Positions 1,528 through 26,714 of a stretch of DNA of 64,000 bases are shown here, in pieces (the first letter of the stretch is position 1; every line of letters starts with the position of its first letter). The DNA is from Candidatus Hydrogenedentota bacterium. Lineage in GTDB: Bacteria; UBA8481; J006. The notes under the pieces were generated by a model, which searched no databases, was not told where the DNA came from, and was given only the letters and a program-made list of their open reading frames with translations. The stretch lies in the NCBI GenBank assembly GCA_003697085.1, contig RFFU01000074.1, positions 17,562-81,561 of the forward strand, in the 5' to 3' direction. Made by a program: the position numbers and the translations under genes.

Positions 1528-1612
1528 CCCACCTCCCGGTTGTCGGAAAGGAAGGATTCTATCTTTTGCCCGCGTTCCAAACAAGAAAGAGGCATCCTCC
1601 CTCCTCCCCCCT

Positions 1613-3904: not shown

Positions 3905-4659
3905 GTCTTCTTCTTGATCAGGAGCCAGATGTAAGTGGGGAAGAGGCAATACAGCCGCCGCACTGCGAAAGCGGCCATCTTTTGCTTGAAGGAACCGGGG
4001 AGTAGCATATCCGTGGCGGCGAACGTTTCCGGCTCCTCAACGATCCTCGGAGTGTAATCGACGACGTCGAAGGCCTTCACAAGTTTTCTCAACCCCCAAC
4101 AGGTGTAAAGGCGTTCGTGGTATTCATTCCCGCGTCCGGTGAGCCGTACATAGGCGTTCGCGAGGGGCCGCGGTAATATCGAGAGAAAGGGAAGTCTATT
4201 GTCCGGCTCGATGAGAATCAGCCTGTTTCCCGCTCCGAAATAACAGACTCCACCCGGTTTAAGGACCCGTTCTATTTCCTTCATCAAGTCCTCGGCGTTC
4301 TCGACATGTTCATAGACGTGGTTACAGACAATGACATCGAAACTCTCGTTCGGAAAATCGGTATGAATTGCATCGCCGATTTGAAAGGAAAGGTTCGGCC
4401 CTTCGAATGTCCGCCGGGCAAACTCCACGGCGGCCTCATCGAGATCGATTCCCGTTGCCGAGCGGAAATGTCGAGCACAGGCGGAAGTCGCGAACCCGGC
4501 CGAGCATCCCATTTCCAGGAGATCAAGATTTCGAGTGTTCGGGAGAAAATCCAGGAGCACGGAGACAATCTTTTTCGCCTTCCAGAGCCGCTGCCGTTCG
4601 TCAAACTGCTCCTGATGAGAGTGGGAATATCCCGTGCGATCATCGGAATCAGGGATCAT
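3901..4659 (-). CDS. class I SAM-dependent methyltransferase
   Basis: Motif I LLEMGCSAGF, then DLDEAAVEFAR, FDVIVCNHVYEHV and LKPGGVCYF (Methyltransf_11-like). Start moved to ATG 4659, an ATGA overlap with the GT4 stop. Confidence 0.85.
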   Translation of the reverse strand: MIPDSDDRTGYSHSHQEQFDERQRLWKAKKIVSVLLDFLPNTRNLDLLEMGCSAGFATSACARHFRSATGIDLDEAAVEFARRTFEGPNLSFQIGDAIHTDFPNESFDVIVCNHVYEHVENAEDLMKEIERVLKPGGVCYFGAGNRLILIEPDNRLPFLSILPRPLANAYVRLTGRGNEYHERLYTCWGLRKLVKAFDVVDYTPRIVEEPETFAATDMLLPGSFKQKMAAFAVRRLYCLFPTYIWLLIKKKT

Positions 4660-5930
4660 TCGGAGAAACCATCCGCTGTTTCCGCGGAAAGAAATGCGAG
4701 ATATTTCCCGACGATCTTTTCCCAACTGTAATGGTTCCGGACGAAAAGGGTGGCGCGGCGTTGTTGTTCGATAGCGTGGTCGGTGTCGAACGAGAGTATC
4801 TCGTTGATTTTTCCGGCCAGTGCCTCGACATCGGCCGGCGGGAAGTAGTAGGCCCCTTCTCCCTCCTGGACGGCCCCGATGTTTCCTCCGACCTCACTGA
4901 CCAACGCGATCGTTCCACAGGCCATTGCTTCAAGGGCGATCGTGGCGGATCCTTCCGTGTCTCCTCGGCTGTCGATGCAGGAGGGGAGAACAAAAAGGTC
5001 GGCGCTTCGCATCCAATCGACGATTTCTTCCTCGGGAATGGGACCGGGCATGATGACGTCGTTTTCGAGACATAATCTTCTCTTCAGAGCCTCCAGTTCA
5101 TTTTGCAAAGGGCCGTCGCCACCGAGAAGGAGACACGCATCGGGATGTTCTTTTTTTACCGCCGGCATCGCCTCCAAAAGGTATCGGTGCCCTTTCCTCT
5201 CAACCATTCTTCCCGTGAAGAAGAGAACTTTCCTGCCGAAGATTTTATATCTTTCGAGAAGGGTGAGGTTGGGAGGTCCTGGAGAATAATAAGCCGTATC
5301 GATGCCATCCGGGATGATCTTGGGGCGGATGCCCGGCGCCACTCGTTCGAGGGCGTCGGCCGTGTTTTTGCTGATGGCAACGAGAAGATCGGCGCCCCGA
5401 GCGCTCATGCGAACGAAAGGTTTGAGAAAAGTCCAGCGGCCGGAATCGAGCGGAAAAATCTCGGCTCCATACGCCGTGATGATCAGCGTGCGACCCGTCA
5501 TTCGTTTGATGAGATAACCGATGAATCCGGGAGGAAACGCCCAGTGGGCATTGATATAACGGATTCTGTTTTCTTGAACGATTCGATAGGCGGTCCAGAA
5601 GAGTCTGAAAAAATAGAACGGAACCTGAAGGAGGCACCACGGGTGACGAATGTTTTCGGGGATTCCGGCGCCCGAGGTGAGTGTCTCCCAGCCGGATACG
5701 AAATAATGAAATCGGTGGATGTTCACACCGTCGACTTTGGCGAAGAGTGCCGTACCGGGTTCGGCGTGAGTCACGACATGAACGGCAAATCCGGCGGAAA
5801 CGAAACTCTTCGCCGCGTGATGGACGAACTTCCCCTTCGGAAGTCTCTTTGAATCGCGGACAAAGGAAGGATAGGAGGTTGTCAGAATACAGAGGGAGCG
5901 TTGGGAGTGCCCGGCGTGGAGAGTCGTCAC
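4656..5930 (-). CDS. glycosyltransferase family 4 (GT-B, Glycos_transf_1)
   Basis: C-terminal half reads FFTGRMVERKGHRYLLEAM...LLLGGDGP...ADLFVLPS...EGSATIALEAMACGTIALVSEVGG, the typical GT4 E-x7-E region. Confidence 0.9.
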   Translation of the reverse strand: MTTLHAGHSQRSLCILTTSYPSFVRDSKRLPKGKFVHHAAKSFVSAGFAVHVVTHAEPGTALFAKVDGVNIHRFHYFVSGWETLTSGAGIPENIRHPWCLLQVPFYFFRLFWTAYRIVQENRIRYINAHWAFPPGFIGYLIKRMTGRTLIITAYGAEIFPLDSGRWTFLKPFVRMSARGADLLVAISKNTADALERVAPGIRPKIIPDGIDTAYYSPGPPNLTLLERYKIFGRKVLFFTGRMVERKGHRYLLEAMPAVKKEHPDACLLLGGDGPLQNELEALKRRLCLENDVIMPGPIPEEEIVDWMRSADLFVLPSCIDSRGDTEGSATIALEAMACGTIALVSEVGGNIGAVQEGEGAYYFPPADVEALAGKINEILSFDTDHAIEQQRRATLFVRNHYSWEKIVGKYLAFLSAETADGFSE

Positions 5931-6130
5931 GAGAATTCCACGAAATGAATGGAAACCGAATCAATGGATCGACGGGATTTTCCCAACACGGATTTCCTTC
6001 TCATCCTCCCGGCGATGAGGGTAGCAAGCCGCCAGGGGGCGGGCAACCGATAAAGCGCCGGAAGGAATGCGGCGTAAAGTCGGTCCCTTGTGTCAATCCT
6101 GTTCTTCATTCCATCGAGTCCCCGTCTCAT
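5927..6130 (-). CDS. small hypothetical protein (uncertain)
   Basis: Its TGA overlaps the GTG start of the GT4 gene (GTGA at 5927-5930), suggesting coupling. The longer ORF-track version (to 6247) runs into repeat module A, so only the distal ~60-67 codons are plausible. No recognisable motif. Confidence 0.25.
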   Translation of the reverse strand: MRRGLDGMKNRIDTRDRLYAAFLPALYRLPAPWRLATLIAGRMRRKSVLGKSRRSIDSVSIHFVEFS

Positions 6131-6177
6131 CTTCGCGGAGCCCTTCGTGGAGGAGGCCGGCCGGGTTCTCTCCCCCG

Positions 6178-6335
6178 GTGTCATTCCGAGCGAGGCGGAG
6201 CGAAGCAACGCCGACGAGGAATCCCCCATGAGTGCCATCCAGCGCATAGCGCGGGGTTCTTACCTGCGGAAATTCGCTTCATAGAGCGGCCAACCCTGGG
6301 AACGCAGGCATCCTGCCTGCATGGAAGGGATGGAA
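6178..6335. repeat. intergenic repeats: module A (GTCATTCCGAG...CGAGGAATCCCCC, 6178-6228) plus a partial module C (6293-6335)
   Basis: Direct sequence match to copies at 11300-11350 (inverted), 29747-29778 and 39955-39986. Confidence 0.7.
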
Positions 6336-6487
6336 CGTAGACTTTTCAGTCCACGCGAGTGAAACGCGGACTCTCCCGTCCGGGGAACGACGCGGCAAAG
6401 TTCGGCACAAATGCCCCCTCTTTGCCTCGCAACCGCGGAACCGCGGGGTTTGTTGCGAAAAGAACACCTCCCTCTTATACTTGATTT

Positions 6488-7474
6488 ATGTATCAAAAAC
6501 AGCGGATCGCGCTGGTTATTCCGGCTCACAACGAAGAGAAACTCATCGGAGATACGTTGCGGGGGGTTCCGGAACTTGTGGACGATATCTACGTAATTGA
6601 CGACGGTTCCACGGACGCGACCTCGGAATGCGCAAGGAAAGTCGGAGACCGCCGGGTCGTGGTCATTCGGAAGGAGAAGAACGAGGGAGTGGGAGCTGCG
6701 ATCGTTACGGGCTACAAGGTTGCCTTTGAGAGAGGCGCCGATATCGCCGTCGTGGTTGGTGGCGATAACCAGATGGACCTGGCGGAGATCGAGAATTTTC
6801 TTCGACCGATCATCGAGGGAGCGGCGGATTACACGAAAGGCAATCGGTTTCTCGATCCCTCCGGGACTTTCGAAAGAATGCCGACCGTCCGGCTCTTCGG
6901 AAATGCCTTGATTTCGGCGATGTGTAAATTGGCTTCCGGTTATTTCAAAGTTTATGATGCGGTGGACGGTTACACGGCGCTGTCGAGATATGGATTCGAG
7001 CAAGTTCGATGGAAGAAGGTCTGGAAGGGATATGGATATCCTTTGGACTTTCTCATTCGTCTCAATACTGCAGGACTTCGGGTAATGGATGTGCCGCGAC
7101 GCGCAATTTACCTTTCCGGGGTCCGACAATCCCAGATTCACGGTTTCTCGTATGCAATTCACGTGTTCCCGATGCTTCTGCGGGGTTTCTTTCGGCGACT
7201 GCTTTACAAATATATTCTTCGAGATTTCCATCCGCTCGTCTTCTTTTATTTGCTGGGGCTCTTCCTGGTTCCGGCGGGATTCGTTTTTGGCCTCTACCTC
7301 GTTTGGCAGCAGGCAAGCGGGATCGGCGTCTCCGGCCCCCGTGCCGTTTTGTGCGCCTTGGCGATCTTGATAGGAGTGCAATCCTTCTTCTTCGCCATCG
7401 CTTTCGAAATCCTGCATCAAGAATCCCCCGGAAACCGACGCCAAGAAGGTCGTTCGAAGCGACAATCGTTATGA
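6488..7474 (+). CDS. glycosyltransferase family 2 with C-terminal transmembrane helices (Dpm1/GtrB-like)
   Basis: ALVIPAHNEEKLIG...VIDDGSTDAT...VVVGGDNQMD (DxD-like) followed by hydrophobic C-terminal helices. Confidence 0.9.
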   Translation: MYQKQRIALVIPAHNEEKLIGDTLRGVPELVDDIYVIDDGSTDATSECARKVGDRRVVVIRKEKNEGVGAAIVTGYKVAFERGADIAVVVGGDNQMDLAEIENFLRPIIEGAADYTKGNRFLDPSGTFERMPTVRLFGNALISAMCKLASGYFKVYDAVDGYTALSRYGFEQVRWKKVWKGYGYPLDFLIRLNTAGLRVMDVPRRAIYLSGVRQSQIHGFSYAIHVFPMLLRGFFRRLLYKYILRDFHPLVFFYLLGLFLVPAGFVFGLYLVWQQASGIGVSGPRAVLCALAILIGVQSFFFAIAFEILHQESPGNRRQEGRSKRQSL

Positions 7475-7573: not shown

Positions 7574-7611
7574 GATTCTCCGCAATCGGGGAGAAAGGAG
7601 AGGTGAAAACG
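7574..7611 (+). promoter_or_regulatory. conserved 38-nt 5' leader with small hairpin and strong Shine-Dalgarno (AAAGGAGAGG), copy 1
   Basis: 35/38 identical to 7791-7828. Contains CTCCG-caat-CGGGG followed by the SD, 8 nt before the ATG. Confidence 0.65.
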
Positions 7612-7758
7612 ATGGCGGAAAAGGAAGCTGAGAAGGTTGAGTCGGATTCCGGGAAGGAGCCGGAGAGGAAAGAGGAGGAGGCGCTTTCCGAGGAGGAGAT
7701 GCGGAAGGTGACGGGGGGACGACTCTTTGGAAATTCGATCGCCGGGCGGGTGCTATGA
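7612..7758 (+). CDS. double-glycine leader peptide precursor A (48 aa: 36-aa leader + 12-aa core RLFGNSIAGRVL)
   Basis: MAEKEAEKVESDSGKEPERKEEEALSEEEMRKVTGG|RLFGNSIAGRVL. L(-12), M(-7), V(-4) and GG(-2,-1) fit the C39-cleaved GG-leader consensus. Strong SD upstream. The leader is paralogous to that of the next gene. An in-frame ATG at 7471 would give a 95-aa form but is not supported by the paralog. Confidence 0.7.
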   Translation: MAEKEAEKVESDSGKEPERKEEEALSEEEMRKVTGGRLFGNSIAGRVL

Positions 7759-7790: not shown

Positions 7791-7828
7791 GATTCCCCGC
7801 AGTCGGGGAGAAAGGAGAGGTGAAAAGG
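7791..7828 (+). promoter_or_regulatory. conserved 38-nt 5' leader with small hairpin and strong Shine-Dalgarno, copy 2
   Basis: GATTCCCCGCAGTCGGGGAGAAAGGAGAGGTGAAAAGG. Hairpin CCCCG-cagt-CGGGG. An in-frame TGA at 7790 prevents any longer N-terminus for the downstream gene. Confidence 0.65.
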
Positions 7829-8515
7829 ATGGCGGAAAAGGAAGACGGGAAGGCAAAAGCCGACAAAGAGAAGGAACCGGAAAGAAAACCGGAGGAACCC
7901 CTTTCGGAGGAGGAGATGAAGGATGTGGCGGGAGGGTTTATTCCCACTCCGGCCACTTTCGGGAATCCCCTTTCGTCCCGGATGGCGTCGAGATTGCGTC
8001 GGCGCGGCGCGGTCGGTCCGGTCGATCCCGAGGAGGCGGTCTCACGCGGTCCGGTCGATCCCGAACAAAGCCGGCGTCCCGACGATCCGAAACACCCGTG
8101 GCACCTTTGCTTCGGCCCGGAGACGCTGGTTCCAACGCGGAAGGGCTATCAGCCTATTTCTGGGATCGCAGTCGGTGACGAGATCGTCAGTGTCACCTTC
8201 GACGGAACCTTGTTCGTCGATCGGGTCGAAAAGCTGGACGTTCACCACGGGGAGATTTCCGTGATCGAACTTTCGTTGGACGACGACGTGATTCTCGTCA
8301 CTCCTGACCATAAGGTCTGGTCGGGCGAGAAATGGATCCGAGCCGCCGACTCGATCTATGTTTCCCGGACGAAGGTGGGAAGAATCGTTCCGGCGGTCTA
8401 TAACCTTCGAACCACCACGGGAACATACCTGGTCGGATACAGCGGACTGCTCGTTTCAGGTGGGCGGGTGGAAGACCTGCATTCCGAGGATCCGGTGGCG
8501 GAGGTTGCTCGGTAG
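7829..8515 (+). CDS. double-glycine leader precursor B fused to a Hint (Hedgehog/intein-like, BIL-type) domain (228 aa)
   Basis: Leader is MAEKEDGKAKADKEKEPERKPEEPLSEEEMKDVAGG, followed by a 57-aa Pro/Arg-rich segment. Cys94 then opens CFGPETLVPT..G..VGDEIVSV, followed by LVTPDHKVW (TxxH) and VYNLRTTTGTYLVGYSGLLVS. The ORF track starts at GTG 7820; ATG 7829 aligns with precursor A. Confidence 0.8.
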   Translation: MAEKEDGKAKADKEKEPERKPEEPLSEEEMKDVAGGFIPTPATFGNPLSSRMASRLRRRGAVGPVDPEEAVSRGPVDPEQSRRPDDPKHPWHLCFGPETLVPTRKGYQPISGIAVGDEIVSVTFDGTLFVDRVEKLDVHHGEISVIELSLDDDVILVTPDHKVWSGEKWIRAADSIYVSRTKVGRIVPAVYNLRTTTGTYLVGYSGLLVSGGRVEDLHSEDPVAEVAR

Positions 8516-8549
8516 GAATGTCTTCACCTGACAATTCCTGAAGTTCCCG

Positions 8550-8590
8550 AAGGAGGGCGTGTTTTCGGAACCGTCCTCCTTTTCTTTTTT
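8550..8590 (+). terminator. rho-independent terminator after precursor B
   Basis: AAGGAGGGCG (8550-8559), a 12-nt loop, CGTCCTCCTT (8572-8581), then TTCTTTTTT. This is a 10-bp stem with one G-U pair and a U-tract. Confidence 0.7.
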
Positions 8591-8739
8591 GCCGTGCTCG
8601 CTCGATGTCTCCCAAACGTTTCACGCTTCGATTCGCTCTTCCCCCTACCGTTCTGTATCTTCCGAGCGTTCCATCGTTTCTTAGTCCGCGCTCCCCCCTT
8701 TCCGGCGCGGGACGGCGCGTAAATGGCGGGTGGCGGGTT

Positions 8740-10986
8740 TTACCCTTGTTGGAACGGTTCCCCCGGCGCTGCCTCCGCCATACGCTCGAGAAAATAGACC
8801 GCCGGGCCGTCGTAGGGAAGTCGTCGTGCGACCTCGGTGATCGATTCCTTGGCACGGGCGACGTCCTTTTCGCGGTAGGCTCGAACGCCCTTCTCCCACG
8901 TTTCCATAACCTCCAGGTAACTCTTCGGGAGCCGTGCGGTTTCATCCACAAGTTCGTAAACATCCAACGCGGCTTTCTGTCCCCGAAGCCGAAAGACTCC
9001 GACGGTACGGAAATAGAACCGGTTTGGAGCGCACTTTTCGACCTCTTGCTTCGTCTCTCCGGACGTCAGGATTGTCGTGCCGAGATCGCGGTTGAGACTT
9101 TCGAGCCGCGAGGCGATATTGACCGTCGTGCCGATGACCGTGTAATCGAAGATCGTTTCGGAACCGAGGTTTCCGGCCACGACTTCGCCTGTATGGATTC
9201 CGATTCGAATGCCGAGATTTGGCCACACTCCGCTGGCCCACGTCTGGGCCAGCTCCGCCACCGCCCGCCGCTTTTCCAGGGCGCAGGAACAGGCGAGCAC
9301 GGCGTGCTTCTCCTGGTGAAGAGGGACGTTCCATTCGGCCATCACCGCGTCGCCGATCATCTTGTCGATCGTTCCGTCGAACGCGACGATCTTCTCGGTC
9401 ATCCTCGTGAAGTAGGTGTTGAGGAAGCGGACCAGATCTTCCGACGGCAACTCCATCGCCCACCGACTGAAGTGTTTGATATCCGAAAAGAGGACGGTCG
9501 CCGTCGTCTTTCGACCGACGAGTGTCAGCGCCGAGGGGTCCTTCAGGATCTCCCGCATTACGGAGGGGGCGACGTATTTCTGAAAGGCCAATCGCAGCCT
9601 CCGTTTCTCCTCGAACTGGTGATAGGTCCAGTCCGACAGGAGGAAGATGCTGGAGGCGAGCAAGGGAGCCGCGACCGGAAGAAGAAAGCCTTTGTTCATC
9701 AGTACTGCGGCGGCTCCCAGAAGAAGAACGCCACTTCCCGCCAAGGATGTCACTCCCCAAACCAGATTGCGGCGCATCCCCCACCATGCAAGAAACGCCG
9801 TGAGGACCGTAAGCAGCCAACCGAGCCACCTTGGAGGGAGCCGGAGGGAGGTGGGATCGAGCAGGGTTGCCGTGGCGTTTGCCAAAATCCGAGTGTAAGG
9901 AAGGGAAACGCCCAAGGGAGTCCGAATCCTCTTCCGAGCGGGACCGATCAAAACGATTCGCCCGGAAAAACGGTCCCGCGACAGCCGTTTCGGCGCGTTA
10001 TCGAAAGCCGCGTCGTGCCACAGGTCGGCGAAGGAAAGCGGTTCCCCTGGAAAGACCTCGAAACGTCCCGCCCGATCCTTTCGATTCCGTTTCGGGTTTC
10101 GGTAATAGTTGACCAGGATGGTTTCGTCCGCATTGGCGGCGCTTTGCTCCCCGAGATTCCGGAGGAGCGAACATCGTGCGCGCCCGTTTCCAGTAAACCC
10201 ACCGGAGTTGCCGGAGAGAGAAGCCGTCCAACCGGCGATCGCCAACGGCAGAGACGGGAAGAAAACGCCCTTGACCTGGAGCCAGAGTGGGAATCCCATC
10301 GTGGGGCGTTCCGGGCGCCGAAAAGCAAGGAAGCCGATCTCCGTTTTCGGAGTCGATACGCGGGACGAGGGAAAAGAGACGCTCGGAACGGAAAGAATTT
10401 TCTTCGGGGGGGTGGAAAAGGAACAGGCGGCCGCGTCGAGTACGGCGGCTTGTTGCCGGTTTGAATTCGCGAAGCCCGAGTCGATTCGGAGAGGCAGGAT
10501 GTTGGGGATTCGATCGAGCGCACTTCGAAAGGAGGCATCCTGTTCTCGGGAGAAGAGGACGGGAAATTCCGCCACGAAGGTTTCGAGTTGGCTCTCTTGT
10601 TCGGCGAGGTGTTTTCGGAGCGCGTCACGGAAGATCGTTGAATTGAGTTTGACGGGAACTTCGTCCAGTACGAAGGGAATGTGGAACGCGACCCCCTGGG
10701 CCCCGTTCTCCGCGAGATATTCGACCACCTTCGCAAAAACACTTCTCGGCCAAGGAGGTTCTCCCATTTCGGGCTTCAGTCTTCGCAAACTTTCGTCATC
10801 GATTTCCACGACCGTGAGGGGCAACTCCGTGGTCGTTTCCCGGTAATGACGGCGTATCCGAAACGCGATGGTTTCTTCCTCGAGACCCTGAACGAGATAG
10901 AACGGGTCCAAGAGGACGAAGAGGACGATCACCGCGAGAAGAAGGGTGCTCGAGTGAGAGAAGTTCTTGACCGACCTAAGAATCAT
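8740..10986 (-). CDS. CHASE2 sensor domain-containing class III adenylate/guanylate cyclase
   Basis: N-terminus VVEIDDESLRRL...GEPPWPRSVFAKVVEYLAENGAQGVAF is CHASE2-like, followed by TM helices. C-terminus TATVLFSDIKHFS...KMIGDAVMA...GIHTGEVVAGNLG...YTVIGTTVNIASRLES is the class III cyclase catalytic core. Confidence 0.9.
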   Translation of the reverse strand: MILRSVKNFSHSSTLLLAVIVLFVLLDPFYLVQGLEEETIAFRIRRHYRETTTELPLTVVEIDDESLRRLKPEMGEPPWPRSVFAKVVEYLAENGAQGVAFHIPFVLDEVPVKLNSTIFRDALRKHLAEQESQLETFVAEFPVLFSREQDASFRSALDRIPNILPLRIDSGFANSNRQQAAVLDAAACSFSTPPKKILSVPSVSFPSSRVSTPKTEIGFLAFRRPERPTMGFPLWLQVKGVFFPSLPLAIAGWTASLSGNSGGFTGNGRARCSLLRNLGEQSAANADETILVNYYRNPKRNRKDRAGRFEVFPGEPLSFADLWHDAAFDNAPKRLSRDRFSGRIVLIGPARKRIRTPLGVSLPYTRILANATATLLDPTSLRLPPRWLGWLLTVLTAFLAWWGMRRNLVWGVTSLAGSGVLLLGAAAVLMNKGFLLPVAAPLLASSIFLLSDWTYHQFEEKRRLRLAFQKYVAPSVMREILKDPSALTLVGRKTTATVLFSDIKHFSRWAMELPSEDLVRFLNTYFTRMTEKIVAFDGTIDKMIGDAVMAEWNVPLHQEKHAVLACSCALEKRRAVAELAQTWASGVWPNLGIRIGIHTGEVVAGNLGSETIFDYTVIGTTVNIASRLESLNRDLGTTILTSGETKQEVEKCAPNRFYFRTVGVFRLRGQKAALDVYELVDETARLPKSYLEVMETWEKGVRAYREKDVARAKESITEVARRLPYDGPAVYFLERMAEAAPGEPFQQG

Positions 10987-11560: not shown

Positions 11561-11718
11561 GTCGCTCGCCGCCGACCGCACCTGTGCATTCCCATTTTTT
11601 CTTTCATTCGCTCTTGAAAATCAATACCAATTGGATTAAACTATAATGCTCTCCTGTTGGAGATTTCGGAGAAGATCGAATTTGAGGAACCGTGGGAGGC
11701 GGGAAGGAGTTCGCGTGT

Positions 11719-12765
11719 ATGAGGTGGTTTTCGCGACGTCTTTTCTCTCTAGGAATGGCGGTTTCGGCTTTGTTTTTGGTGGCGGGAGCCGGGAATGCTT
11801 CCCTCTATTCCTCCAACGGTTTCTATAACGTTACCTTCAACAATCCAACAAACACGAAATATATCGACAAGAGAGCCTCGGATTTCATCGACGCGGCTCA
11901 GTCGTACTGTTACGTCGCGATCTACGCGCTGAATCGCCAGAGGATCGTGGACAGCCTGATCGAGCGTCACCAGGCCGGGGTGGACGTTCGCGTGGTGACC
12001 GAAGCCGATAACCGTAATCACCCCTCCTACAAGGCCGCTTATGATCAACTCGAGGCCGCCGGAATCGTCGTCAAAACCGATAACCGGTCCGCTCTGATGC
12101 ACCACAAGTTCATCGTGGTCGATGATAACGAGGTTCTGACGGGATCCTACAATTTTACCGATGAAGGAACGCAACAGAACAAGAACAATCTCTTGGTCAT
12201 CCACTCCTCGGGCGTCGCTTCGCGTTTCAAGGGAGAGTTCCTCGAGATGTGGGCGGGGAGGTTCGGCAACGCGAAGGCGGATTTCTCGGGGAGAAACACC
12301 GTCAGCGGCGCCACCGTGTACACGAAGTTCGGCCCGAAGGCGAATCTCCGCGCTTCCCTGCTCTACCATCTCAACACCGCCAACGTTTCCGTCTATTTCA
12401 ACATCTTCACCTTCACCGACCAGTCGATCGCGGACAAGTTGGTCGAACTCCACCAGCGCGGTGTTACCGTAAAAGGCACGATGGACGCCTACCAGGCCAC
12501 CGACCAGTATTCGCAGTATCAGTACCTCGTGGCGAACGGCCTGCCGATCAAGCGCGATGCATATGCGGGTTTGTTGCACGACAAATTCATCGCCATCGAC
12601 GCGGGAACCGCCAGCACACCGAAACTGATCACCGGTTCGGCGAACTGGACGGCCGCGGCCGACGAGGAGAACGACGAGGATATGTTGGTCATCTACGACT
12701 ACGACACCGTCGGAAGAAGTTACAAGGGAAACGCCGTTTACGTCTACAACTACAAGGCCTACTGA
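11719..12765 (+). CDS. secreted phospholipase D superfamily protein with two HKD motifs (PLD/Nuc-like)
   Basis: Signal-like N-terminus MRWFSRRLFSLGMAVSALFLVAGAGNA. HKD motifs are HHKFIVVDDNEVLTGSYNFT and LHDKFIAIDAGTASTPKLITGSANWT. Start moved to ATG 11719, with GGGAAGGAG 10 nt upstream. Confidence 0.85.
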   Translation: MRWFSRRLFSLGMAVSALFLVAGAGNASLYSSNGFYNVTFNNPTNTKYIDKRASDFIDAAQSYCYVAIYALNRQRIVDSLIERHQAGVDVRVVTEADNRNHPSYKAAYDQLEAAGIVVKTDNRSALMHHKFIVVDDNEVLTGSYNFTDEGTQQNKNNLLVIHSSGVASRFKGEFLEMWAGRFGNAKADFSGRNTVSGATVYTKFGPKANLRASLLYHLNTANVSVYFNIFTFTDQSIADKLVELHQRGVTVKGTMDAYQATDQYSQYQYLVANGLPIKRDAYAGLLHDKFIAIDAGTASTPKLITGSANWTAAADEENDEDMLVIYDYDTVGRSYKGNAVYVYNYKAY

Positions 12766-14875: not shown

Positions 14876-15496
14876 ATGATAGGTTGGGAAACGATGCGAA
14901 AGGTCCTTTTCATTCTCGGGCTCCTGACGGATCAGGATGTTGAACGCCTCGGGAGGCTGGGGTCCATCGAGAAGATTTCAGCGGGAGCGACGTTGATAGA
15001 AGCGGGGCGTCATCCCGACAAGGTCTATTTCATACTCAGCGGTATTTTTCGTGTTACGCGGAACGCTGCCGTCGGTACGGAGGGGGCGAGCGAGGGGGCG
15101 GTGGGTTCGAAAAACGTCGTGGCGGAACTGCGCGCGGGTGAAGTATTGGGGGAGATGTCGTTCGTTCAAGATGCGCCGCCGACGGAGACGGTCACGGCGG
15201 TCGGGGAGGGTGAGGTCTTGGCGATACCCCGCGAGGACCTCCGCGCCGTTCTCGAATCGGATCCCGCTTTCGCCTCGCGTTTTTATCAAGCCATCGCCGC
15301 TTTTCTTGCGGATCGCCTGCGCGGAACGATGAACCGGCTCTATGGGAGGCCGACGGAAACGGCGGGAGCGGGAGACGATGACTCGGAGAGAGGAACGATT
15401 CTCGAAGAGGACGAGTTGGATCCCCGCGTTCTTGATCGTGTTTCGCGTGCCGGAGAACGATTCGACCGATTGCTCAAGAAGTTCCGCGGGAGATAA
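14876..15496 (+). CDS. bacteriocin-transport-associated cyclic nucleotide-binding domain protein (cyc_nuc_ocin-like)
   Basis: cNMP-binding beta-barrel: AGATLIEAGRHPDKVYFILSGIFRV...RAGEVLGEMSFVQDAPPTETVTAVGEGEVLAI. First gene of the exporter operon. An alternative ATG lies at 14894. The phosphate-binding-cassette Arg appears replaced (PPTET versus PRSAT). Confidence 0.8.
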   Translation: MIGWETMRKVLFILGLLTDQDVERLGRLGSIEKISAGATLIEAGRHPDKVYFILSGIFRVTRNAAVGTEGASEGAVGSKNVVAELRAGEVLGEMSFVQDAPPTETVTAVGEGEVLAIPREDLRAVLESDPAFASRFYQAIAAFLADRLRGTMNRLYGRPTETAGAGDDDSERGTILEEDELDPRVLDRVSRAGERFDRLLKKFRGR

Positions 15497-15501
15497 GACG
15501 T

Positions 15502-16746
15502 ATGGTCGAATATCGCAAGGCGGCGCTCGATAAACTTGCTTCCCCCGAGCAACTCGACCGTCTCATTACGGTCACCGGTTCCCGTAGTTGGCTCGCTCTG
15601 GGCTCCATCTGTTTTCTTCTTCTCCTGATCCTCGTTTGGAGTGTCGTCGGGCGGATCCCCGTCACCGTCTCGGGACGCGGAATCCTGATCCGGGAGGGGG
15701 GGTTGGTTGAGATCGAGAGTCTGGGGACGGGATTAATTTCGGAGCTCCTGGTGGAGGAAGGGGATCACGTGGAGCCGGGCCAGCTGGTCGCTCGGATCCG
15801 ACAACCGACGCTCGTAACGGAGATCGAACAAGCGCGGGATCGGGTGCAGGAGCTCGAGGTGCAGCGGGAACGGACTTCGAAGCTAGAGTCGGAACGTGTC
15901 CGGCTGGGGGCCGCCGCGCTCGACCAACAGGAGGCGGAATTGCGAGGAACGATCCGCACCTCTCGGGAACGTGTTGCGTGGTTGGAGAAGCGGGTGGAGG
16001 CCTATCGCGATGCTGTTCGCGAGGGGCTGATCACGGAGGAGGAGTTGCGGCGGGTGATGAAGGAACGGGCGAGCGAGCGGGAGGTGATCGCGCGGGCCGA
16101 ATCCCGTCTCAAGAAGATCGCGTCGGATCGCCAAGCGCTGGAGACCGAGCGGGAGCGAAATCTTCTTGCGATCGACAAACAGCTCAGCGACGCCCGGCGG
16201 ACGCTGGCGGCTTTGGAGTCGCGGCTTCGCGAGGAAGGGCAGGTGTTTTCTCCGCACCGGGGCCGGGTCGTGGAGATCAAGGTCGAGCAAGGAGCGATTG
16301 TGACGAGGAACGCGGCCCTGATGAGTCTCGAGGCGGAAACGGGCCCGCTGGTCGCCGAGGTTTTCATTCCGGTCGAGGCGAAGAAGATACGCCGTGGGAT
16401 GGCGGCGCGGATCGCTCCCGCCACGGTGAAAAAGGAAGAGTACGGGATGATTGTCGGGCGCGTGGACGGTGTCTCGGCGCTTCCCGCCACGCGGGAAGGG
16501 ATGATGCATCTTTTGAAGAACGAATTGTTGGTCAAAGAACTGGCTTCGCGCGGCGCCCCCTTCCGTGTCACGTTGTCGCTCGAGGAGGATTCGGCGAGTT
16601 TCAGCGGTTTCCGATGGACCTCCTCGCGCGGGCCGAGAGTGCGGATCGAAAGCGGGATGCTCTGCGAGGGACGGATCGTCGTGGAGAAGAAGGCGCCGAT
16701 CCGCTTTCTTATTCCGGCGCTCAAGTCCTTCTTCGGCATAACGTAA
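15502..16746 (+). CDS. NHLM-type bacteriocin system secretion adaptor (HlyD family membrane fusion protein)
   Basis: N-terminus YRKAALDKLASPEQLDRLITVT, one TM helix, a long coiled coil, then barrel-type domains. Positioned directly before the C39-ABC gene. Confidence 0.88.
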   Translation: MVEYRKAALDKLASPEQLDRLITVTGSRSWLALGSICFLLLLILVWSVVGRIPVTVSGRGILIREGGLVEIESLGTGLISELLVEEGDHVEPGQLVARIRQPTLVTEIEQARDRVQELEVQRERTSKLESERVRLGAAALDQQEAELRGTIRTSRERVAWLEKRVEAYRDAVREGLITEEELRRVMKERASEREVIARAESRLKKIASDRQALETERERNLLAIDKQLSDARRTLAALESRLREEGQVFSPHRGRVVEIKVEQGAIVTRNAALMSLEAETGPLVAEVFIPVEAKKIRRGMAARIAPATVKKEEYGMIVGRVDGVSALPATREGMMHLLKNELLVKELASRGAPFRVTLSLEEDSASFSGFRWTSSRGPRVRIESGMLCEGRIVVEKKAPIRFLIPALKSFFGIT

Positions 16747-16757
16747 CTCGGAGAACG

Positions 16758-18962
16758 ATGGCTGTCGCCGCCGCGGAAGGTATCAAACCGTCTTCGGGAA
16801 AACCGCGGTTCCGTCGTGTCCGAACGCCGACGGTTCTTCAGATGGAGGCGGTGGAGTGCGGCGCGGCATCGCTGGCGATTATTCTCGAGTATTACGGCCG
16901 CGTGGTTCCGCTCGAGGAACTTCGCGTCGCATGCGGGGTGACGCGGGACGGAAGCAACGCCTTTCATTTGATCTCGGCTGCGCGGGAGTACGGATTCGAA
17001 GCCCACGGATACCGAAAGGACATTCCCCACCTCTACAACATCAAACCGCCCTTCATCATCTTCTGGAACTTCAACCATTTTTTGGTCGTCGAGGGATTGG
17101 CCAAGGATCGCGTTTTTCTCAACGATCCCGCGATGGGACCGCGCGTCGTTCCGATGGACGAATTCAACGAGTCCTACACCGGCGTTGTTCTGACCTTTGA
17201 ACCGACGCCGCGCTTCAGGAGAGGGGGACGCCGTCCGAGCCTGTCAGCGGCGGTCTGGAACCGCGTACGCCACTCTTCCGAAGGCATCGCCTACGCCGCT
17301 GTGGCGGCCGTCGCGCTCGTCGGCCCCGGATTGGCGGTTCCCGCCTTTTCGCGGATCTTCATCGATGACATTCTCATCGGCGGAATGCACGACTGGATCC
17401 GTCCCGTCCTGCTCGGTTTGGCGATCACTGGGTTTTTTCGCGTCTTTCTTACCTTTCTCCAGTCCCATTCTCTTCTTCGGCTCGAAACGAAACTTTCGAT
17501 CACCCAGACCGGTCGCTTTTTGCACCATATCCTTCATCTTCCCGTCTCGTTCTACCAGCAGCGTTACGGCGGAGAAATCAGCAACCGAGTCGGTTTCAAT
17601 TCGGACATCGCCCGCATCCTTTCGAACCGTCTCGCCGGAACGATCCTGGACCTTTTCATGACTGTCTTTTATGGAACGGTTCTCTTTCTGCTTTCTCCGG
17701 TGTTGATGCTGATTGCGGTTCTGGGAGTGGCCGCGAATGCCGTTACGGCTCGGACGATGCATCGGACCCTGACCGACGAGAACCTCCGTCTTCAGCAAGA
17801 GGCCGGAGCGACTTTGTCCGCGGCGATGTCCGGCGTGGCCTCGATCGAGACGCTGAAGGCGACGGGGAGCGAATCGGACTTCTTCGCGAACTGGGCGGGG
17901 CATCACGCGAAATACACGGTGACGATGCAAAACCTGAGTCTCAAAAGTGCTCTCTATTCCTCCCTCTCGACCCTCGTGAATTCCCTTTCGGACGTGGCGA
18001 TTCTGGGAGCCGGGGCCCTTCTGATTATGAACGGCCGCATCACGATGGGAACCTTTGTCGCCTTTCACGCGCTCTCCGCCTCCTTTGCGGGTCCGGTGAC
18101 GCGGATCATCAATCTCGCGACGGTGATTCAAGCCTTGCGCGCGCGCCTTGTCCGTCTCGACGACGTGCTCAATCACAAACACGCGCCGGACCTGCGGGTC
18201 GCGGAATCGACGCCGGTCGTTGCAGAAGAGGAAGAGAAACTTTCGGGACATCTCGAGATCCGCAATCTCACCTTCGGCTATTCGCGTTTCGATCCGCCGT
18301 TGATCGAGAATTTTTCGATGACGATCGCTCCGGGCGGGCGCGTGGCTTTGGTGGGGGCATCGGGATGCGGGAAATCGACATTGGCGAAACTGATCACCGG
18401 ATTGTACGAGCCGTGGGAGGGTGAGATTTATTTCGACGGACGTCCGCGAAAGGCGATCCCGCGTTCCGTGCTTACGAGCTCCGTTGCGATGGTGGATCAA
18501 GAGATTTCACTCTTTTCCGGAACCATTCGCGAGAACATTACACTTTGGGACGAGACGATTCCGGATATCGAAGTGGTGCGGGCGGCCAAGGATGCGGCGA
18601 TTCACTCCGAGATCACAGCGCGCGCGGGGGGATATGACGCGGAGTTGGAGGAGGGAGGAGCGAATCTTTCCGGCGGTCAACGCCAGAGGCTGGAGATCGC
18701 CCGGGCGCTCGTGACGAATCCTCGCCTGCTGATTCTGGACGAGGCGACCAGCGCTCTCGATCCCGTGACCGAGAAGGAGATCGATCGCAATCTGCGGGTG
18801 CGCGGTTGTACCTGCGTGATCGTCGCCCATCGGCTTTCGACGATTCGCGACGCGGACGAGATCATCGTCCTTGAACGCGGCCGGGTGGTTCAAAGGGGGA
18901 CGCACGAGGAATTGATCGCCGATCCGGACGCGCCGTATGCGCGATTGGTAAAGGCTCAATGA
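16758..18962 (+). CDS. peptidase C39 domain-containing ABC transporter (NHLM-type ABC1, peptidase/permease/ATPase)
   Basis: C39 domain reads VLQMEAVECGAASLAIILEYYG (Gln28/Cys34), NHFLVVEG (His), LNDP (Asp). Six-helix TMD. Walker A GASGCGKST, signature LSGGQRQR, Walker B LILDEATSALD. The ORF-track start at 15978 is an upstream out-of-gene extension; ATG 16758 lies 11 nt after the HlyD stop. Confidence 0.92.
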   Translation: MAVAAAEGIKPSSGKPRFRRVRTPTVLQMEAVECGAASLAIILEYYGRVVPLEELRVACGVTRDGSNAFHLISAAREYGFEAHGYRKDIPHLYNIKPPFIIFWNFNHFLVVEGLAKDRVFLNDPAMGPRVVPMDEFNESYTGVVLTFEPTPRFRRGGRRPSLSAAVWNRVRHSSEGIAYAAVAAVALVGPGLAVPAFSRIFIDDILIGGMHDWIRPVLLGLAITGFFRVFLTFLQSHSLLRLETKLSITQTGRFLHHILHLPVSFYQQRYGGEISNRVGFNSDIARILSNRLAGTILDLFMTVFYGTVLFLLSPVLMLIAVLGVAANAVTARTMHRTLTDENLRLQQEAGATLSAAMSGVASIETLKATGSESDFFANWAGHHAKYTVTMQNLSLKSALYSSLSTLVNSLSDVAILGAGALLIMNGRITMGTFVAFHALSASFAGPVTRIINLATVIQALRARLVRLDDVLNHKHAPDLRVAESTPVVAEEEEKLSGHLEIRNLTFGYSRFDPPLIENFSMTIAPGGRVALVGASGCGKSTLAKLITGLYEPWEGEIYFDGRPRKAIPRSVLTSSVAMVDQEISLFSGTIRENITLWDETIPDIEVVRAAKDAAIHSEITARAGGYDAELEEGGANLSGGQRQRLEIARALVTNPRLLILDEATSALDPVTEKEIDRNLRVRGCTCVIVAHRLSTIRDADEIIVLERGRVVQRGTHEELIADPDAPYARLVKAQ

Positions 18963-21877
18963 CGGCGCGCGATCTGCTCGCGTCTCTCGCTCGGCTCGGT
19001 CCAGAACGGGATGTGAGCGGGAAGGAGACGTTCTACGTTCAGGGAGCCGAACGCGCGTGGGTCCTGACGAAAGGCGTTGTCGATGTCTTCGCGGTTATGC
19101 TCGAGGACGAGCGGCCCATCGGCCCGCGACATTACCTCTTCAGCGCCTCGCCGGGAATCATTCTCTTCGGTGTCGATCTTCTCCGCTACCACAAGCGTTG
19201 TGCTCTGTTGGCGGTCGGAGTTCCGGGAACGCGTGTTGTTTCCTTCGGCATCGCGGATTTGGTCGAGACGGCCCGGCGAAGTGGAACGCTGGAGGCGCTG
19301 GCGAGGCAGATTGAGGATTTTTCTGGAAAGGTAGGGGCGCTCTTCACCGCTCGTGAGCGGCCACCGTTCGATGAATTTCTCGCCGTGGGAGAGGAACGAG
19401 AGGTTCCGGCGGGTCGTGTTCTCGGAACGGAGCGCGGAATTACTTGGGTCCACGTGATCGGGGGGAAGGTCCGGCTCTGTGGTTTCGAGGATCTCGTCGT
19501 GGAGGCCGACGGCACCGCCGTTCCTCTCGCCCCGGGGCTTTGGCTCGAAACACTTATTGCGTCACATCTCGAGGTGATCGACAGCCGCGCGTTGCTTGAA
19601 CGCGATCCGCGCCTGAAGGCGTTGGGAAATTTGCAAGCCGTATATGTCCGATGGATCGAGGACCGCATCGCGGCGAAGCGGGCCGAGGAGCGGGAACGAA
19701 TTTCCCGGAGGCGTGAGCGGGATCAGGCGATTCTTGCCAAGGCTCTGGAGGATCTTAGCAGTGTTCTTGTCGGAAAAGGGCGCGCCGTGCCGGAGCACGA
19801 TCGTCCTCTGTTGGCCGCCTTGAATCGGATCGGCGCCGCGCTCGATTTGGATTTTCACCTTCCTTCGGAGTGGGAGTTGAGCCGGTACGGCGCCGCGCCT
19901 CTCGAGGCCATCTGCCGCCGTTCGCGGATCCGCCACCGGCGGGTGGCCCTTTACGGAGATTGGTATCGCCGGGACAACGGGCCGTTATTGGTCTTTCGAG
20001 ACAAGGAGCACGGGGCAACGCCCGTAGCCGCGGTTCCTCTTTCGGAGTCGCAGTACGAATACTTTGACCCTGTCACGGGAGCGACGGGGATTCTGACGCG
20101 GGATGTTGCCGCCACGCTCGATCCCTTCGGCGTGATGTTTTATCCTCCGCTTCCCGCAAAACCGCTTCACGTCTTTCAACTACTCAGACACGGAAGCCGG
20201 TTCGTTTCGAAGGACCTCCGGCGGGTGTTGGGGTTGAGTTTGGCGGCCGGCGCGCTTTCGCTGGCGTTGCCGTGGGCGACAGGGCTCCTTTTCAGCGACG
20301 TGATTCCTTCTTCCGAGCGACCGCTTCTTCTGCAGGTTGTTTTAGCGCTGTTGATCGCTTCTTCCGTCCAGACGCTCTTCCATTTCGTTCGCACGATTGC
20401 GCTGACGCGGATGCGGGCACGGTGGGGCGAGACGGTTCAGGCGGCGCTGTGGGACCGGATCGCTTCCTTGCCTCCGCGATTCTTCCGCCGCTTCACCGTC
20501 GGGGATCTCGTGGATCGCGCCGAGGTCGTGGATCACCTGCGCGAGGAACTCAGCGGCGCCGGGCTGACGGCCATCATCGGCGGGTTGATGTCGCTGATGC
20601 AATTTATTTTGATGTTCTACTATAGCCGGGTTCTCGCTCTGGGAGCCTTGGGAATCACGGCGCTCTTTGCTCTCGTGACCGGAGGCCTTGCCGTGGGAAT
20701 GCTGCGGTACGAGAGGGAGATGCAGAGGATCGCGGGGCGCCTCTCGGGTTTTCTTTACCAGGTGATCACCGGCATTGCCAAGATTCGGGTGGCGGGGGCC
20801 GAGGAACGGGCGTTTGCGGAATGGGCGCGACGGTTCCGCCGCGAACGCCTTCTCCGCTTCCGGGCCGGCTCCTACCAGAACATCATTCTCACCGTCAATG
20901 CCGGGCTGCCGATCCTTTCGACGATTCTCGTCTTTCTCCTTGTGCGTTATGCCGCGTTGCTCCCGGAGGGAGCCTGGATCAGTGTCGGGGATTTCATTGC
21001 CTTCAACGCCGCGATGACCGTCTTCCTCAACTCCGCGCTTTCGCTTACCGACACGGCGGTCAACCTTCTCAACCTCGTCCCGATGTTCGAACGCGTCGAG
21101 CCGATTCTTGTGACGGAGCCGGAAGCGCGGGAGGATCGGCCGGATCCGGGGCGCATCACCGGTTCTGTCGAGATGAGTCACGTTTCGTTTCGGTATCATC
21201 CCGACGGGCCGCTTGTTCTCGACGATGTTTCGTGGTCGGCGGCGCCCGGGGAGTTCGTTGCGTTGGTCGGGCCGTCCGGGGGAGGCAAATCGACGATCAT
21301 CCGGTTGTTGCTGGGATTCGAAATCCCGGAGACGGGAAACATCTATTTCGATGGGAGGGATGTATCGGCGGTGGACGTCACGGCGTTGCGGCGTCAGATC
21401 GGAGTCGTTCTCCAGAACAGCCGGCTCCGCCCCGGCTCGATCTTCGACAATATCGTCGGTTCCTCGAATCTTACCCTCGATGATGCCTGGCGTGTGGCCG
21501 AGCAGGCGGGTTTGAAGGAGGATATCGAGGCGATGCCGATGGGAATGCACACGAACATTTCCGAGGGAGGGACGACGTTTTCGGGGGGGCAGCGACAACG
21601 AATTCTGATCGCCCGCGCGCTGATTCATCAACCGCGAATCCTGATCTTCGACGAAGCGACGAGTGCCCTGGACAACACGACGCAGAAAGTCGTCTCCGAC
21701 AGTCTCGACCGTCTCAATGCAACGCGGATCGTGATCGCCCATCGCCTTTCGACGATCCGAAATGCCGACAGAATCTATGTAATCGAGAAGGGAAGGATTG
21801 TACAACGGGGAAACTACGAGGAATTGATGACGGAGGGAGGTCTATTCACCGACCTCGCGCGCCGTCAACTCGCTTAG
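18959..21877 (+). CDS. second ABC transporter of the NHLM-type system (ABC2; long N-terminal regulatory-like domain, no peptidase)
   Basis: ATGA overlap with ABC1. About 400-aa N-terminal region with a degenerate cNMP-barrel-like start, then a TMD, Walker A GPSGGGKST, signature FSGGQRQR, Walker B LIFDEATSALD. Confidence 0.9.
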   Translation: MTARDLLASLARLGPERDVSGKETFYVQGAERAWVLTKGVVDVFAVMLEDERPIGPRHYLFSASPGIILFGVDLLRYHKRCALLAVGVPGTRVVSFGIADLVETARRSGTLEALARQIEDFSGKVGALFTARERPPFDEFLAVGEEREVPAGRVLGTERGITWVHVIGGKVRLCGFEDLVVEADGTAVPLAPGLWLETLIASHLEVIDSRALLERDPRLKALGNLQAVYVRWIEDRIAAKRAEERERISRRRERDQAILAKALEDLSSVLVGKGRAVPEHDRPLLAALNRIGAALDLDFHLPSEWELSRYGAAPLEAICRRSRIRHRRVALYGDWYRRDNGPLLVFRDKEHGATPVAAVPLSESQYEYFDPVTGATGILTRDVAATLDPFGVMFYPPLPAKPLHVFQLLRHGSRFVSKDLRRVLGLSLAAGALSLALPWATGLLFSDVIPSSERPLLLQVVLALLIASSVQTLFHFVRTIALTRMRARWGETVQAALWDRIASLPPRFFRRFTVGDLVDRAEVVDHLREELSGAGLTAIIGGLMSLMQFILMFYYSRVLALGALGITALFALVTGGLAVGMLRYEREMQRIAGRLSGFLYQVITGIAKIRVAGAEERAFAEWARRFRRERLLRFRAGSYQNIILTVNAGLPILSTILVFLLVRYAALLPEGAWISVGDFIAFNAAMTVFLNSALSLTDTAVNLLNLVPMFERVEPILVTEPEAREDRPDPGRITGSVEMSHVSFRYHPDGPLVLDDVSWSAAPGEFVALVGPSGGGKSTIIRLLLGFEIPETGNIYFDGRDVSAVDVTALRRQIGVVLQNSRLRPGSIFDNIVGSSNLTLDDAWRVAEQAGLKEDIEAMPMGMHTNISEGGTTFSGGQRQRILIARALIHQPRILIFDEATSALDNTTQKVVSDSLDRLNATRIVIAHRLSTIRNADRIYVIEKGRIVQRGNYEELMTEGGLFTDLARRQLA

Positions 21878-26612: not shown

Positions 26613-26714
26613 AGAGCCATCATACGCCCCCCGATTCTTTTCCACAACCGCGGCCGCAACGACGTTTCTCTCCCTTACCAAGAGCGGTCTCCGTGTTGTA
26701 TAATTCCCCCCGTG

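Follow-up and report, generated by a model that had tools for sequence, protein, structure and literature searches.

A double-glycine leader joined to a C-terminal Hint domain in a Candidatus Hydrogenedentota bacterium: a candidate self-processing precursor of an exported peptide

Hint (Hedgehog/intein-like) domains and export by double-glycine (GG) leaders are each well known; what appears to be new in the gene described here is their combination. The gene is an open reading frame (ORF) at positions 7829-8515 of the forward strand in a 64,000-nucleotide stretch of contig RFFU01000074.1 (the window) from Candidatus Hydrogenedentota bacterium, and its 228-residue product starts with a GG leader and ends in a Hint domain. 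Several described systems come close to this design. Bacterial intein-like (BIL) domains sit in the variable regions of secreted bacterial proteins that are not themselves conserved, and those of type B lack the intein C-terminal motif and uncouple cleavage from splicing (Amitai 2003; Dassa 2004; reviewed in PMC4031507, PMC7765530). The Hog-Hint domains are distinguished by 'Asp or His' at the general-base site (PMC7765530). In polymorphic toxins, the PT-HINT domain immediately precedes a toxin domain at the C-terminus and sets it free (Zhang et al. 2012, PMC3482391). Bacterial proteins combining a C-terminal Hint-like domain with Sec signal peptides have also been reported (Burglin 2008, PMC2362128; Dassa & Pietrokovski). 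On the export side, the LahT150 co-crystal demonstrated that hydrophobic residues at -4, -7 and -12, together with GG, dock the leader helix in the groove of the C39 peptidase (PMC6363468). A search of full-text literature returned no paper joining Hint or intein-like domains with double-glycine leaders, leaders of peptides made on ribosomes and modified after translation (RiPPs), lanthipeptides or C39. The combination appears undescribed, as had been supposed in a first reading of this DNA made from its letters alone (hereafter the sequence-only reading).

The ATG at 7829 is preceded by a Shine-Dalgarno (SD) sequence, GGAGAGG, placed 8 nt 5′ of the start. The translation, 228 residues plus a stop codon, agrees exactly with that of the sequence-only reading and is identical to D6679_07460, the NCBI protein of this metagenome-assembled genome (MAG). 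Within the Hint domain we find a Cys1-Phe start (C94-F95, the Cys codon being tgc at 8108-8110), D137-x-H139, T158-P-D-H161, a block F Asn (N192) and a block G which ends in Ser-Gly; blocks F and G read VYNLRTTTGTYLVGYSGLLVS210-G211 and are followed by a 17-residue tail. The positions first given for the leader, the core, Cys94, the T-P-D-H box, block F/G and the 18 residues after S210 were all confirmed. The proposed replacement of the terminal His-Asn also stands as a loss, but the alignment places it at S210-G211 and not at V209-S210, V209 being the conserved Val that stands before the His in inteins. No C-extein, toxin domain or sterol-recognition region follows the Hint domain, and the tail measures at most 25 residues in nearly all close relatives. 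On balance we judge it moderately probable that the gene encodes an exported GG-leader precursor, the Hint domain of which performs an N-to-S shift at Leu93-Cys94, with the resulting thioester being resolved and a C39-type ATP-binding cassette (ABC) transporter trimming and exporting the peptide.

The Hint assignment is a family-level result. A phmmer scan, exhaustive over 1.84 billion representatives, yielded 126 relatives, 14 of them at E<1e-10, and 31 relatives of ~30% identity were used for the family alignment. H161 and W169 are invariant in this alignment, while C94, F95, T158, H139, N192, G198, Y200 and G203 are at least 90% conserved. Pfam recognizes Hint_2 in 24 of the 31 sequences, PT-HINT (PF07591) in 20 and Hint in 12. 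Compared with the PDB, the family profile matches the bacterial intein-like domain 2lwy over its whole length (E=2.9e-19), as well as the Hedgehog HhC domain 1at0 (6e-7) and many mini-inteins. AlphaFold2 supplied with the family alignment gave a predicted local distance difference test score (pLDDT) above 90 for residues 90-215, and the top Foldseek matches of the model are exclusively Hint domains. Since family conservation, the Pfam matches of the relatives, the 2lwy profile match, the predicted structure and the fold search agree, the Hint fold and superfamily membership are established, and the structural part of the sequence-only reading is borne out.

Which chemistry such a domain retains can be read from a comparison within the family. 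All full-length Hint modules of the relatives were aligned and divided into internal ones, followed by at least 60 residues (n=43), and terminal ones (n=59). The block-G His-Asn is present in 42/43 internal but only 7/59 terminal modules (Fisher p=4e-20), and the Ser-Gly which the 228-residue protein carries at this place occurs in 28 of the 59 terminal modules and in none of the 43 internal ones. The residues of thioester formation behave differently: Cys occupies position 1 in 58/59 terminal and 37/43 internal modules (with Ser in six further internal ones), Thr or Ser fills the T158 column in 58/59 terminal modules, and the His161 of T-x-x-H is found in 59/59 terminal and 42/43 internal modules. 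Judged from these columns, the thioester-forming half of the active site is under strong constraint in the relatives, and the Asn-cyclisation half has been lost specifically where no sequence lies downstream. This specific loss of His-Asn in terminal Hints lends good support to the earlier proposal that the 228-residue protein, like Hedgehog, would form and cleave a thioester at the N-terminal side only. A splicing intein was considered and rejected, given the missing block-G Asn, the missing C-extein and the lack of a host protein.

The same columns bear on the idea of a cleavage-inactive carrier, in which the Hint domain would stay attached to the peptide as a folded module that aids solubility, acts as a chaperone or serves for binding. 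Degenerate Hint domains occur in nature, the Asp of intein block F is an Asn here, and the block-G His-Asn is gone. However, the near-absolute conservation of Cys1 and of the block B Thr and His at ~30% identity is hard to explain without catalysis, and the active BIL domain 2lwy likewise has Asn at block F (VYNF). We consider a purely structural role very unlikely.

The leader comprises 36 residues, is rich in Lys and Glu, and is given a helix at residues 27-33 by AlphaFold2. Its V33/M30/L25/GG pattern conforms to the C39 recognition rule (hydrophobic residues at -4, -7 and -12; GG, GA or GS at -2/-1). Immediately upstream is a tandem paralogue, absent from the sequence-only reading, which encodes a 48-residue GG-leader peptide: the same leader, MAEKEAEKVESDSGKEPERKEEEALSEEEMRKVTGG, followed by a 12-residue core, RLFGNSIAGRVL, which aligns to the start of the 57-residue core. 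The duplication takes in a small hairpin, the SD sequence, the leader and the first part of the core, with 79% nucleotide identity. NCBI annotates this gene as a 95-residue protein starting at 7471 (D6679_07455), a version that is probably too long. Its leader shows weak matches to lactococcin G-alpha (NF038035, E=0.0054) and TIGR04149 (E=0.0062), and reaches 13.2 bits with TIGR01847, for which the cut-off is 15.7. Strict and loose six-frame motif scans of the 64-kb window found no credible GG leader beyond the two tandem genes. A terminator-like hairpin with its U-tract closes the two-gene unit (Table 1). The fit to the LahT150 rule, the tandem duplication, the GG leaders of relatives and a neighbouring C39 domain with its catalytic residues uphold the GG leader that had been proposed.

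The small hairpins themselves stand just 5′ of the SD sequence in both copies, at 7579-7594 (TCTCCGcaatCGGGGA) and 7797-7812 (TCCCCGcagtCGGGGA) of the forward strand. A T-to-C difference between them converts a G.U pair into a G-C pair. The hairpin may represent a regulatory or transcript-stabilising element.

The segment between the leader and Cys94 had been read as a module of its own, and a stand-alone homologue supports this. P0023, a complete 69-residue gene product from another metagenome, has the same leader, ELSEEEAREVRGG, and no Hint domain. The start of its core matches that of the 57-residue core (FIPTPAGLGDP...GPIDP...SRGPIDP), and it ends ~5 residues short of the DPKHP...C junction. 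A frameshifted Hint remnant behind P0023 was ruled out, as the 300-nt gap holds no ORF with Hint similarity. Since P0023 is complete without the domain, leader and core form an independent unit to which the Hint domain is an add-on. A search with leader and core alone recovered only the tandem gene at 7612-7758. Residues 45-87 of the 228-residue protein have pLDDT below 50 and are predicted to be disordered. The DPKHP motif at -9 to -5 is kept in GG-type Hint proteins despite otherwise unrelated cores, and is probably part of the Hint module, in the role of an N-extein contact.

In the reading that we prefer, the genes at 7612-7758 and 7829-8515 would form a two-gene unit for exported peptides with near-identical GG leaders. 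Once folded, the Hint domain would use Cys94 and T158-x-x-H161 to turn the Leu93-Cys94 peptide bond into a thioester by an N-to-S acyl shift. Having neither a terminal Asn nor a C-extein, it could neither splice nor cleave its C-terminus, and resolution of the thioester would fall to an external nucleophile, the default being water, or a cellular thiol with subsequent hydrolysis. The upstream peptide would be freed with a defined C-terminus (...DPKHPWHL) and the Hint domain discarded. The leader would be cut between Gly36 and Phe37, and the C39-ABC/HlyD system encoded at 14876-21877 would export the peptide, which is presumably bioactive. Cleavage would most simply be cytoplasmic and precede export, which would produce a 93-residue substrate, a normal size for such exporters. 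The Hint domain would then be a self-removing C-terminal cap, or an activating group, on a secreted peptide. In other bacteria the same module caps cargos of the lantibiotic type, of radical-SAM clusters and of polymorphic toxins.

The fate of the thioester could be more elaborate. Terminal Hints have acquired a D-x-H motif at what appears to be the Hedgehog general-base position: His is found at column 139 in 49/59 terminal vs 15/43 internal modules (Fisher p=1e-6), and Asp or Glu at column 137 in 35/59 vs 3/43 (Fisher p=3e-8). In pairwise alignments D137 pairs with D46 of 1at0 and H139 with H46 of 6tyy, an active D46H mutant; as each pairs with site 46, the register is ambiguous by one strand position. 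The 'Asp or His' hallmark of Hog-Hint domains would thereby lie at or beside this site, and D137-x-H139 could act as a conserved base which activates a nucleophile other than water, for instance a lipid or polyprenol hydroxyl, a sugar or an amine, so that the peptide leaves with a covalent C-terminal ester or amide adduct; the precursor would then be self-tailoring in the true sense. Productive use of the thioester would make the retention of the whole domain easier to understand, and a GT2 glycosyltransferase lies directly upstream of the precursor genes on the same strand, with best similarities, far below cut-off, to polyprenyl-phosphate sugar transferases. On the other side stand the 17 residues after the Hint domain, which leave no sterol- or adduct-recognition region, the ambiguous D46 register, the lack of a candidate nucleophile, and the existence of P0023 and the 12-residue-core paralogue, which do without thioester chemistry. 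We therefore hold such a transfer to be rather doubtful. We find it equally doubtful that such a transfer constitutes a hitherto unrecognised route of maturation for secreted peptides and toxins, with C-terminally conjugated bacteriocins or RiPPs as its products. This route would parallel Hedgehog cholesteroylation in bacteria, and cargos with GG leaders, with lantibiotic leaders, from radical-SAM clusters and of the polymorphic-toxin kind would each have recruited it independently.

Head-to-tail macrocyclisation, raised in the sequence-only reading, would have the Phe37 amine attack the Leu93 thioester to produce a 57-residue cyclic peptide. The reaction is chemically conceivable; type A BIL domains ligate when a free amine attacks the N-terminal thioester (PMC4031507). 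In the present case, however, the core contains no Cys, and the +1 residues of the GG-type relatives are F, I, R, S, R and Q, none of them Cys, so that efficient ligation-type chemistry is lacking. Leader removal would have to precede thioester resolution, the core to be closed is 57 residues long and predicted to be disordered, and the route is impossible for the Hint-less P0023 and the 12-residue-core product of 7612-7758. Relatives of the RHS and giant toxin types cannot take it either. With no ligation-competent Cys, Ser or Thr at +1 and two relatives unable to use the route, cyclisation is disfavoured and strikes us as exceedingly improbable.

The design recurs elsewhere. In all close relatives the Hint domain is the last domain, and the sequence preceding terminal Hints varies. 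Short GG-leader Hint proteins are represented by P0002, P0003, P0005, P0006 and P0027. P0041 and its tandem paralogue, encoded on one contig (L018; Table 1), have N-termini which match the curated leader model of mersacidin/lichenicidin type-2 lantibiotics (TIGR03898, 64 bits vs a cut-off of 23.5). There, a Thr/Ser/Cys-rich core, AITTSSW.C..V.VT.CDEL, is followed by a Pro-rich linker and then by the terminal Hint domain. A P450 gene lies upstream of this pair, and the contig stops short of a possible LanM/LanT region. A further arrangement, seen in P0018, P0020, P0037 and P0131, consists of a ~190-residue N-domain ending in ...GG, a glycine-zipper segment and the Hint domain. Two divergent examples, P0018 and P0131 (L019 7343-11526; L023 7061-11188), adjoin B12-binding radical S-adenosylmethionine (SAM) enzymes, and methyltransferases, a sulfotransferase, glycosyltransferases and a decarboxylase lie around them; these neighbourhoods are RiPP-like clusters. 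The ~190-residue N-domain of P0018, P0020 and P0037 found no match in the PDB by sequence and is therefore not called nitrile-hydratase-like (NHLP).

Other relatives are RHS-tip fragments and proteins of 2,300-2,400 residues with Calx-beta-like repeats. Between orthologues of a Planctomycetaceae MAG (L009) and a Pirellulaceae MAG (L012), the domains preceding the Hint module have been exchanged in the manner of polymorphic toxins. Behind its Hint domain the L012 protein shows part of block F/G a second time, VYDLQTESGTCLVGSVGYL, in what resembles a scar left by recombination during cassette exchange. An orphan polymorphic-toxin cassette was rejected for 7829-8515, which has its own SD sequence, ATG and leader. 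The named hosts of the relatives are MAGs of the PVC (Planctomycetes-Verrucomicrobia-Chlamydiae) group and the Hydrogenedentota MAG of the 228-residue protein. A degenerate DNA pattern, YN[LVI]RT..G[TS]Y[LI][VI]G, recovered five genome and five metagenome loci and no new GG-leader member.

For export, the window contains a complete cassette of four genes which, as judged from conserved residues, is catalytically competent (Table 1). It is opened by a cyclic nucleoside monophosphate (cNMP)-binding protein and continues with an HlyD-type adaptor and two ABC subunits. The C39 domain of ORF 16758-18962 keeps Gln28, Cys34, His107 and the Asp, and its product is a candidate leader protease and exporter. 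As the 64 kb hold no other credible GG leader, this otherwise orphan exporter has no candidate substrates besides the two tandem peptides.

Table 1. Features of the precursor and exporter genes (positions in the window) and of the lantibiotic-leader pair on another contig
Feature	Position	Strand	Remarks
Tandem paralogue, 48-residue GG-leader peptide	7612..7758	+	
Double-glycine leader, residues 1-36	7829..7936	+	L25/M30/V33/G35-G36 at -12/-7/-4/-2,-1
57-residue Pro/Arg-rich, predicted-disordered cargo and linker, F37-L93	7937..8107	+	C-terminal end is the DPKHPxxx motif
Hint (Hedgehog/intein-like, BIL-like) autoprocessing domain, Cys94-Gly211	8108..8461	+	
Short tail G212-R228 and stop codon	8462..8515	+	Family pattern SGG-x-x-x-DL
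Terminator-like hairpin and U-tract	8549..8593	+	Hairpin 8549-8582, -19.9 kcal/mol, bulged, z-score only -1.6
cNMP-binding 'bacteriocin-type transport-associated' protein, first gene of exporter operon	14876..15496	+	Pfam cNMP_binding; TIGR03896 E=3.6e-38, below cut-off
HlyD-type adaptor of NHLP-bacteriocin systems	15502..16746	+	TIGR03794, 348 bits vs cut-off 156
C39-peptidase ABC exporter NHLM_micro_ABC1	16758..18962	+	TIGR03796, 1027 bits vs 853; Peptidase_C39 E=4e-36
Second ABC subunit NHLM_micro_ABC2, without peptidase domain	18959..21877	+	TIGR03797, 876 bits vs 709
Two tandem lantibiotic-leader-Hint genes (L018)	5100-5771, 5990-6631		GCA_041156725.1, JBFPDZ010029231.1

Several observations weigh against an exported, self-processing precursor. 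Taken as a single sequence, the 228-residue protein gives only sub-threshold Hint matches in Pfam/NCBIfam (Hint_2 18.7 bits vs a cut-off of 28.4; Hint 11.6 vs 29.7, E=0.21; intein_Nterm 15.2 vs 24.5, E=0.033), and of the predicted Hint match only the family-level part (Hint_2, 2lwy) held. Curated hidden Markov models of GG leaders also remain below cut-off with this protein, the best being TIGR03949 (E=0.058) and TIGR04149 (E=0.17). The usual substrates of TIGR03796-type exporters are NHLP/Nif11 precursors, and the protein is neither, the leader models TIGR03793 and TIGR03798 giving no match at E<=10. Between the Hint gene and the exporter operon there are about 6.4 kb, and the C39-ABC gene lies 8.2 kb away, with an oppositely oriented adenylate cyclase and unrelated genes in between. 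No C39-ABC gene was seen on the relatives' contigs of 1-14 kb, and the co-occurrence that the sequence-only reading had proposed to look for was observed beside no relative. These contigs, including the genes upstream, showed no conserved neighbour by similarity either; given their length, both results are weak negative evidence. Minimal relatives of ~175 residues have ~23 residues before Cys1 (e.g. MNRKLTELLPSKTIAACKGIHEC directly before CF), no leader or signal peptide, and unrelated neighbours; they occur at L008, L010 (4367-4900), L011, L016 and L017, in Verrucomicrobiota and Kiritimatiellae MAGs and in metagenomes. Membership of the Hint family thus extends beyond exported peptides. Finally, the retention of a 135-residue domain merely for self-hydrolysis is hard to account for and hints at a chemical role of the thioester.

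Taken together, some of these points could describe a protein which is not of the bacteriocin type at all: a small terminal-Hint protein of PVC and Hydrogenedentota bacteria, kin to toxin tips, with an unused GG and an N-terminal segment that serves as linker, residing in the cytoplasm or exported by another route. Among the closest relatives are RHS-tip proteins and giant Calx-beta proteins in which the domains ahead of the Hint have been swapped, the minimal forms are leaderless, no relative has a conserved neighbour or exporter nearby, and the exporter of the window lies beyond unrelated genes. Against this, the leader is conserved in the tandem genes and P0023 while the cores diverge, it follows the structural recognition rule of C39 peptidases, and the two peptides are the sole GG-leader candidates near the orphan exporter. 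Moreover, Hint domains of this family have been joined independently to a lantibiotic leader of a curated family and to radical-SAM-cluster precursors, so that the family does serve precursors of secreted peptides. This alternative is in our opinion unlikely, and the exported precursor remains the preferred reading.

The surroundings of the two genes offer some further observations. A CHASE2-sensor adenylate/guanylate cyclase (8740-10986, reverse strand) is convergent to the Hint gene. This cyclase, together with the cNMP-binding gene which opens the exporter operon, suggests that peptide export may be gated by cyclic nucleotide. Between precursors and exporter lie a two-domain protein of the phospholipase D (PLD) family with NucT/DrmC-like similarities (11692-12765, forward) and a HEPN-type 'nucleotidyltransferase substrate-binding' protein (13151-13687, forward); both may belong to defence or toxin-antitoxin functions unrelated to the precursors. 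Glycosyltransferases (GT4, GT2, GT1) and methyltransferases (class I, FkbM) are found on both sides, at 4656-7474 and 21928-27011, and the precursor-exporter region looks embedded in an envelope-glycan locus. Glycocin-type tailoring by the upstream GT2 enzyme was rejected on its resemblance to polyprenyl-phosphate sugar transferases. LanM, LanB, YcaO and radical-SAM genes were not found in the 64-kb window, as the sequence-only reading had stated for separate tailoring enzymes. An Rce1-like/CPBP intramembrane protease gene is located at 709-1584 (reverse strand), and the GG-Hint relative P0027 has a weak Rce1-like gene 1.1 kb downstream (L006 7130-7738; L007 6244-6852). CPBP/Abi proteins often serve as bacteriocin immunity proteins, and the gene in the window is a possible immunity gene.

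If the Hint domain self-cleaves, these genes represent a class of secreted-peptide precursors which bear their own C-terminal processing or activating enzyme. Such a design is missed in natural-product mining, because precursor searches presume short peptides and trans-acting enzymes. The recurrence on a mersacidin-type pair, on long-leader precursors of B12-radical-SAM clusters and on the tips of RHS and giant toxins points to a portable solution of general use, by which secreted cargo is released or chemically armed. Furthermore, the family could provide a simple bacterial model for the N-terminal-only Hint chemistry of the Hedgehog type, and the conserved Asp/His pair at the putative general-base site makes a bacterial, Hedgehog-like C-terminal conjugation directly testable. 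In practical terms, both a 'peptide-intein-fusion' expression strategy of natural origin and a new Hint family, splicing-dead and thioester-forming, could aid the production of peptide thioesters.

Compared with the known systems, the protein shares features with each. As a putative C39-ABC substrate, in the sense of peptidase-containing ABC transporters (PCAT) or ABC transporter maturation and secretion (AMS) proteins, it shows L-12/M-7/V-4/GG, tandem precursors with one leader and an exporter cassette in the neighbourhood; in contrast to the usual cargo, it carries a folded autoprocessing domain of 135 residues. NHLP/Nif11 systems, whose TIGR03794, TIGR03796 and TIGR03797 components are present here, differ in that our protein has neither an NHLP/Nif11 leader domain nor an adjacent tailoring enzyme. 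The proteins of Burglin are a loose precedent: they too have a terminal Hint-like domain and are presumably secreted. Compared by description, they contain a conserved Cys-containing N-region and a very divergent Hint-like domain with motifs A and B only, whereas blocks A, B, F and G are all clear in the 228-residue protein, which bears a GG leader.

The PT-HINT systems are related through the 20 PF07591 matches among the 31 relatives and through relatives that occupy RHS tips or giant repeat proteins, the domains of which can be swapped. The order is however reversed, since the Hint domain comes last in the 228-residue protein and in all close relatives and can therefore free only upstream sequence; the His-Asn for downstream release is lost. 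Hedgehog Hog (1at0, 6tyy) likewise combines a secreted cargo with a C-terminal Cys-Phe Hint domain that forms an N-terminal thioester only and does not splice, and an Asp/His of our Hint domain may lie at or beside general-base position 46. The differences concern the sterol/adduct recognition region (~60-70 residues in Hog, a tail of only 17 here), the scissile bond (Gly-Cys in Hedgehog, Leu-Cys here) and the export signal: Hedgehog uses a Sec signal peptide, while the present protein is bacterial, has a GG leader and comes with no evidence of a lipid adduct. BIL domains share the Cys1 and T-x-x-H, with 2lwy from Clostridium thermocellum as a solved example; our Hint domain differs from them in its position at the extreme C-terminus with nothing downstream to cleave or ligate, in the GG leader and in the family-specific D-x-H. 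As a type A BIL domain, 2lwy has His-Asn where the 228-residue protein has Ser-Gly, which sets the latter apart from type A. Likened by description only, type B BIL domains provide the closest functional description, and both the motif pattern and the context fit.

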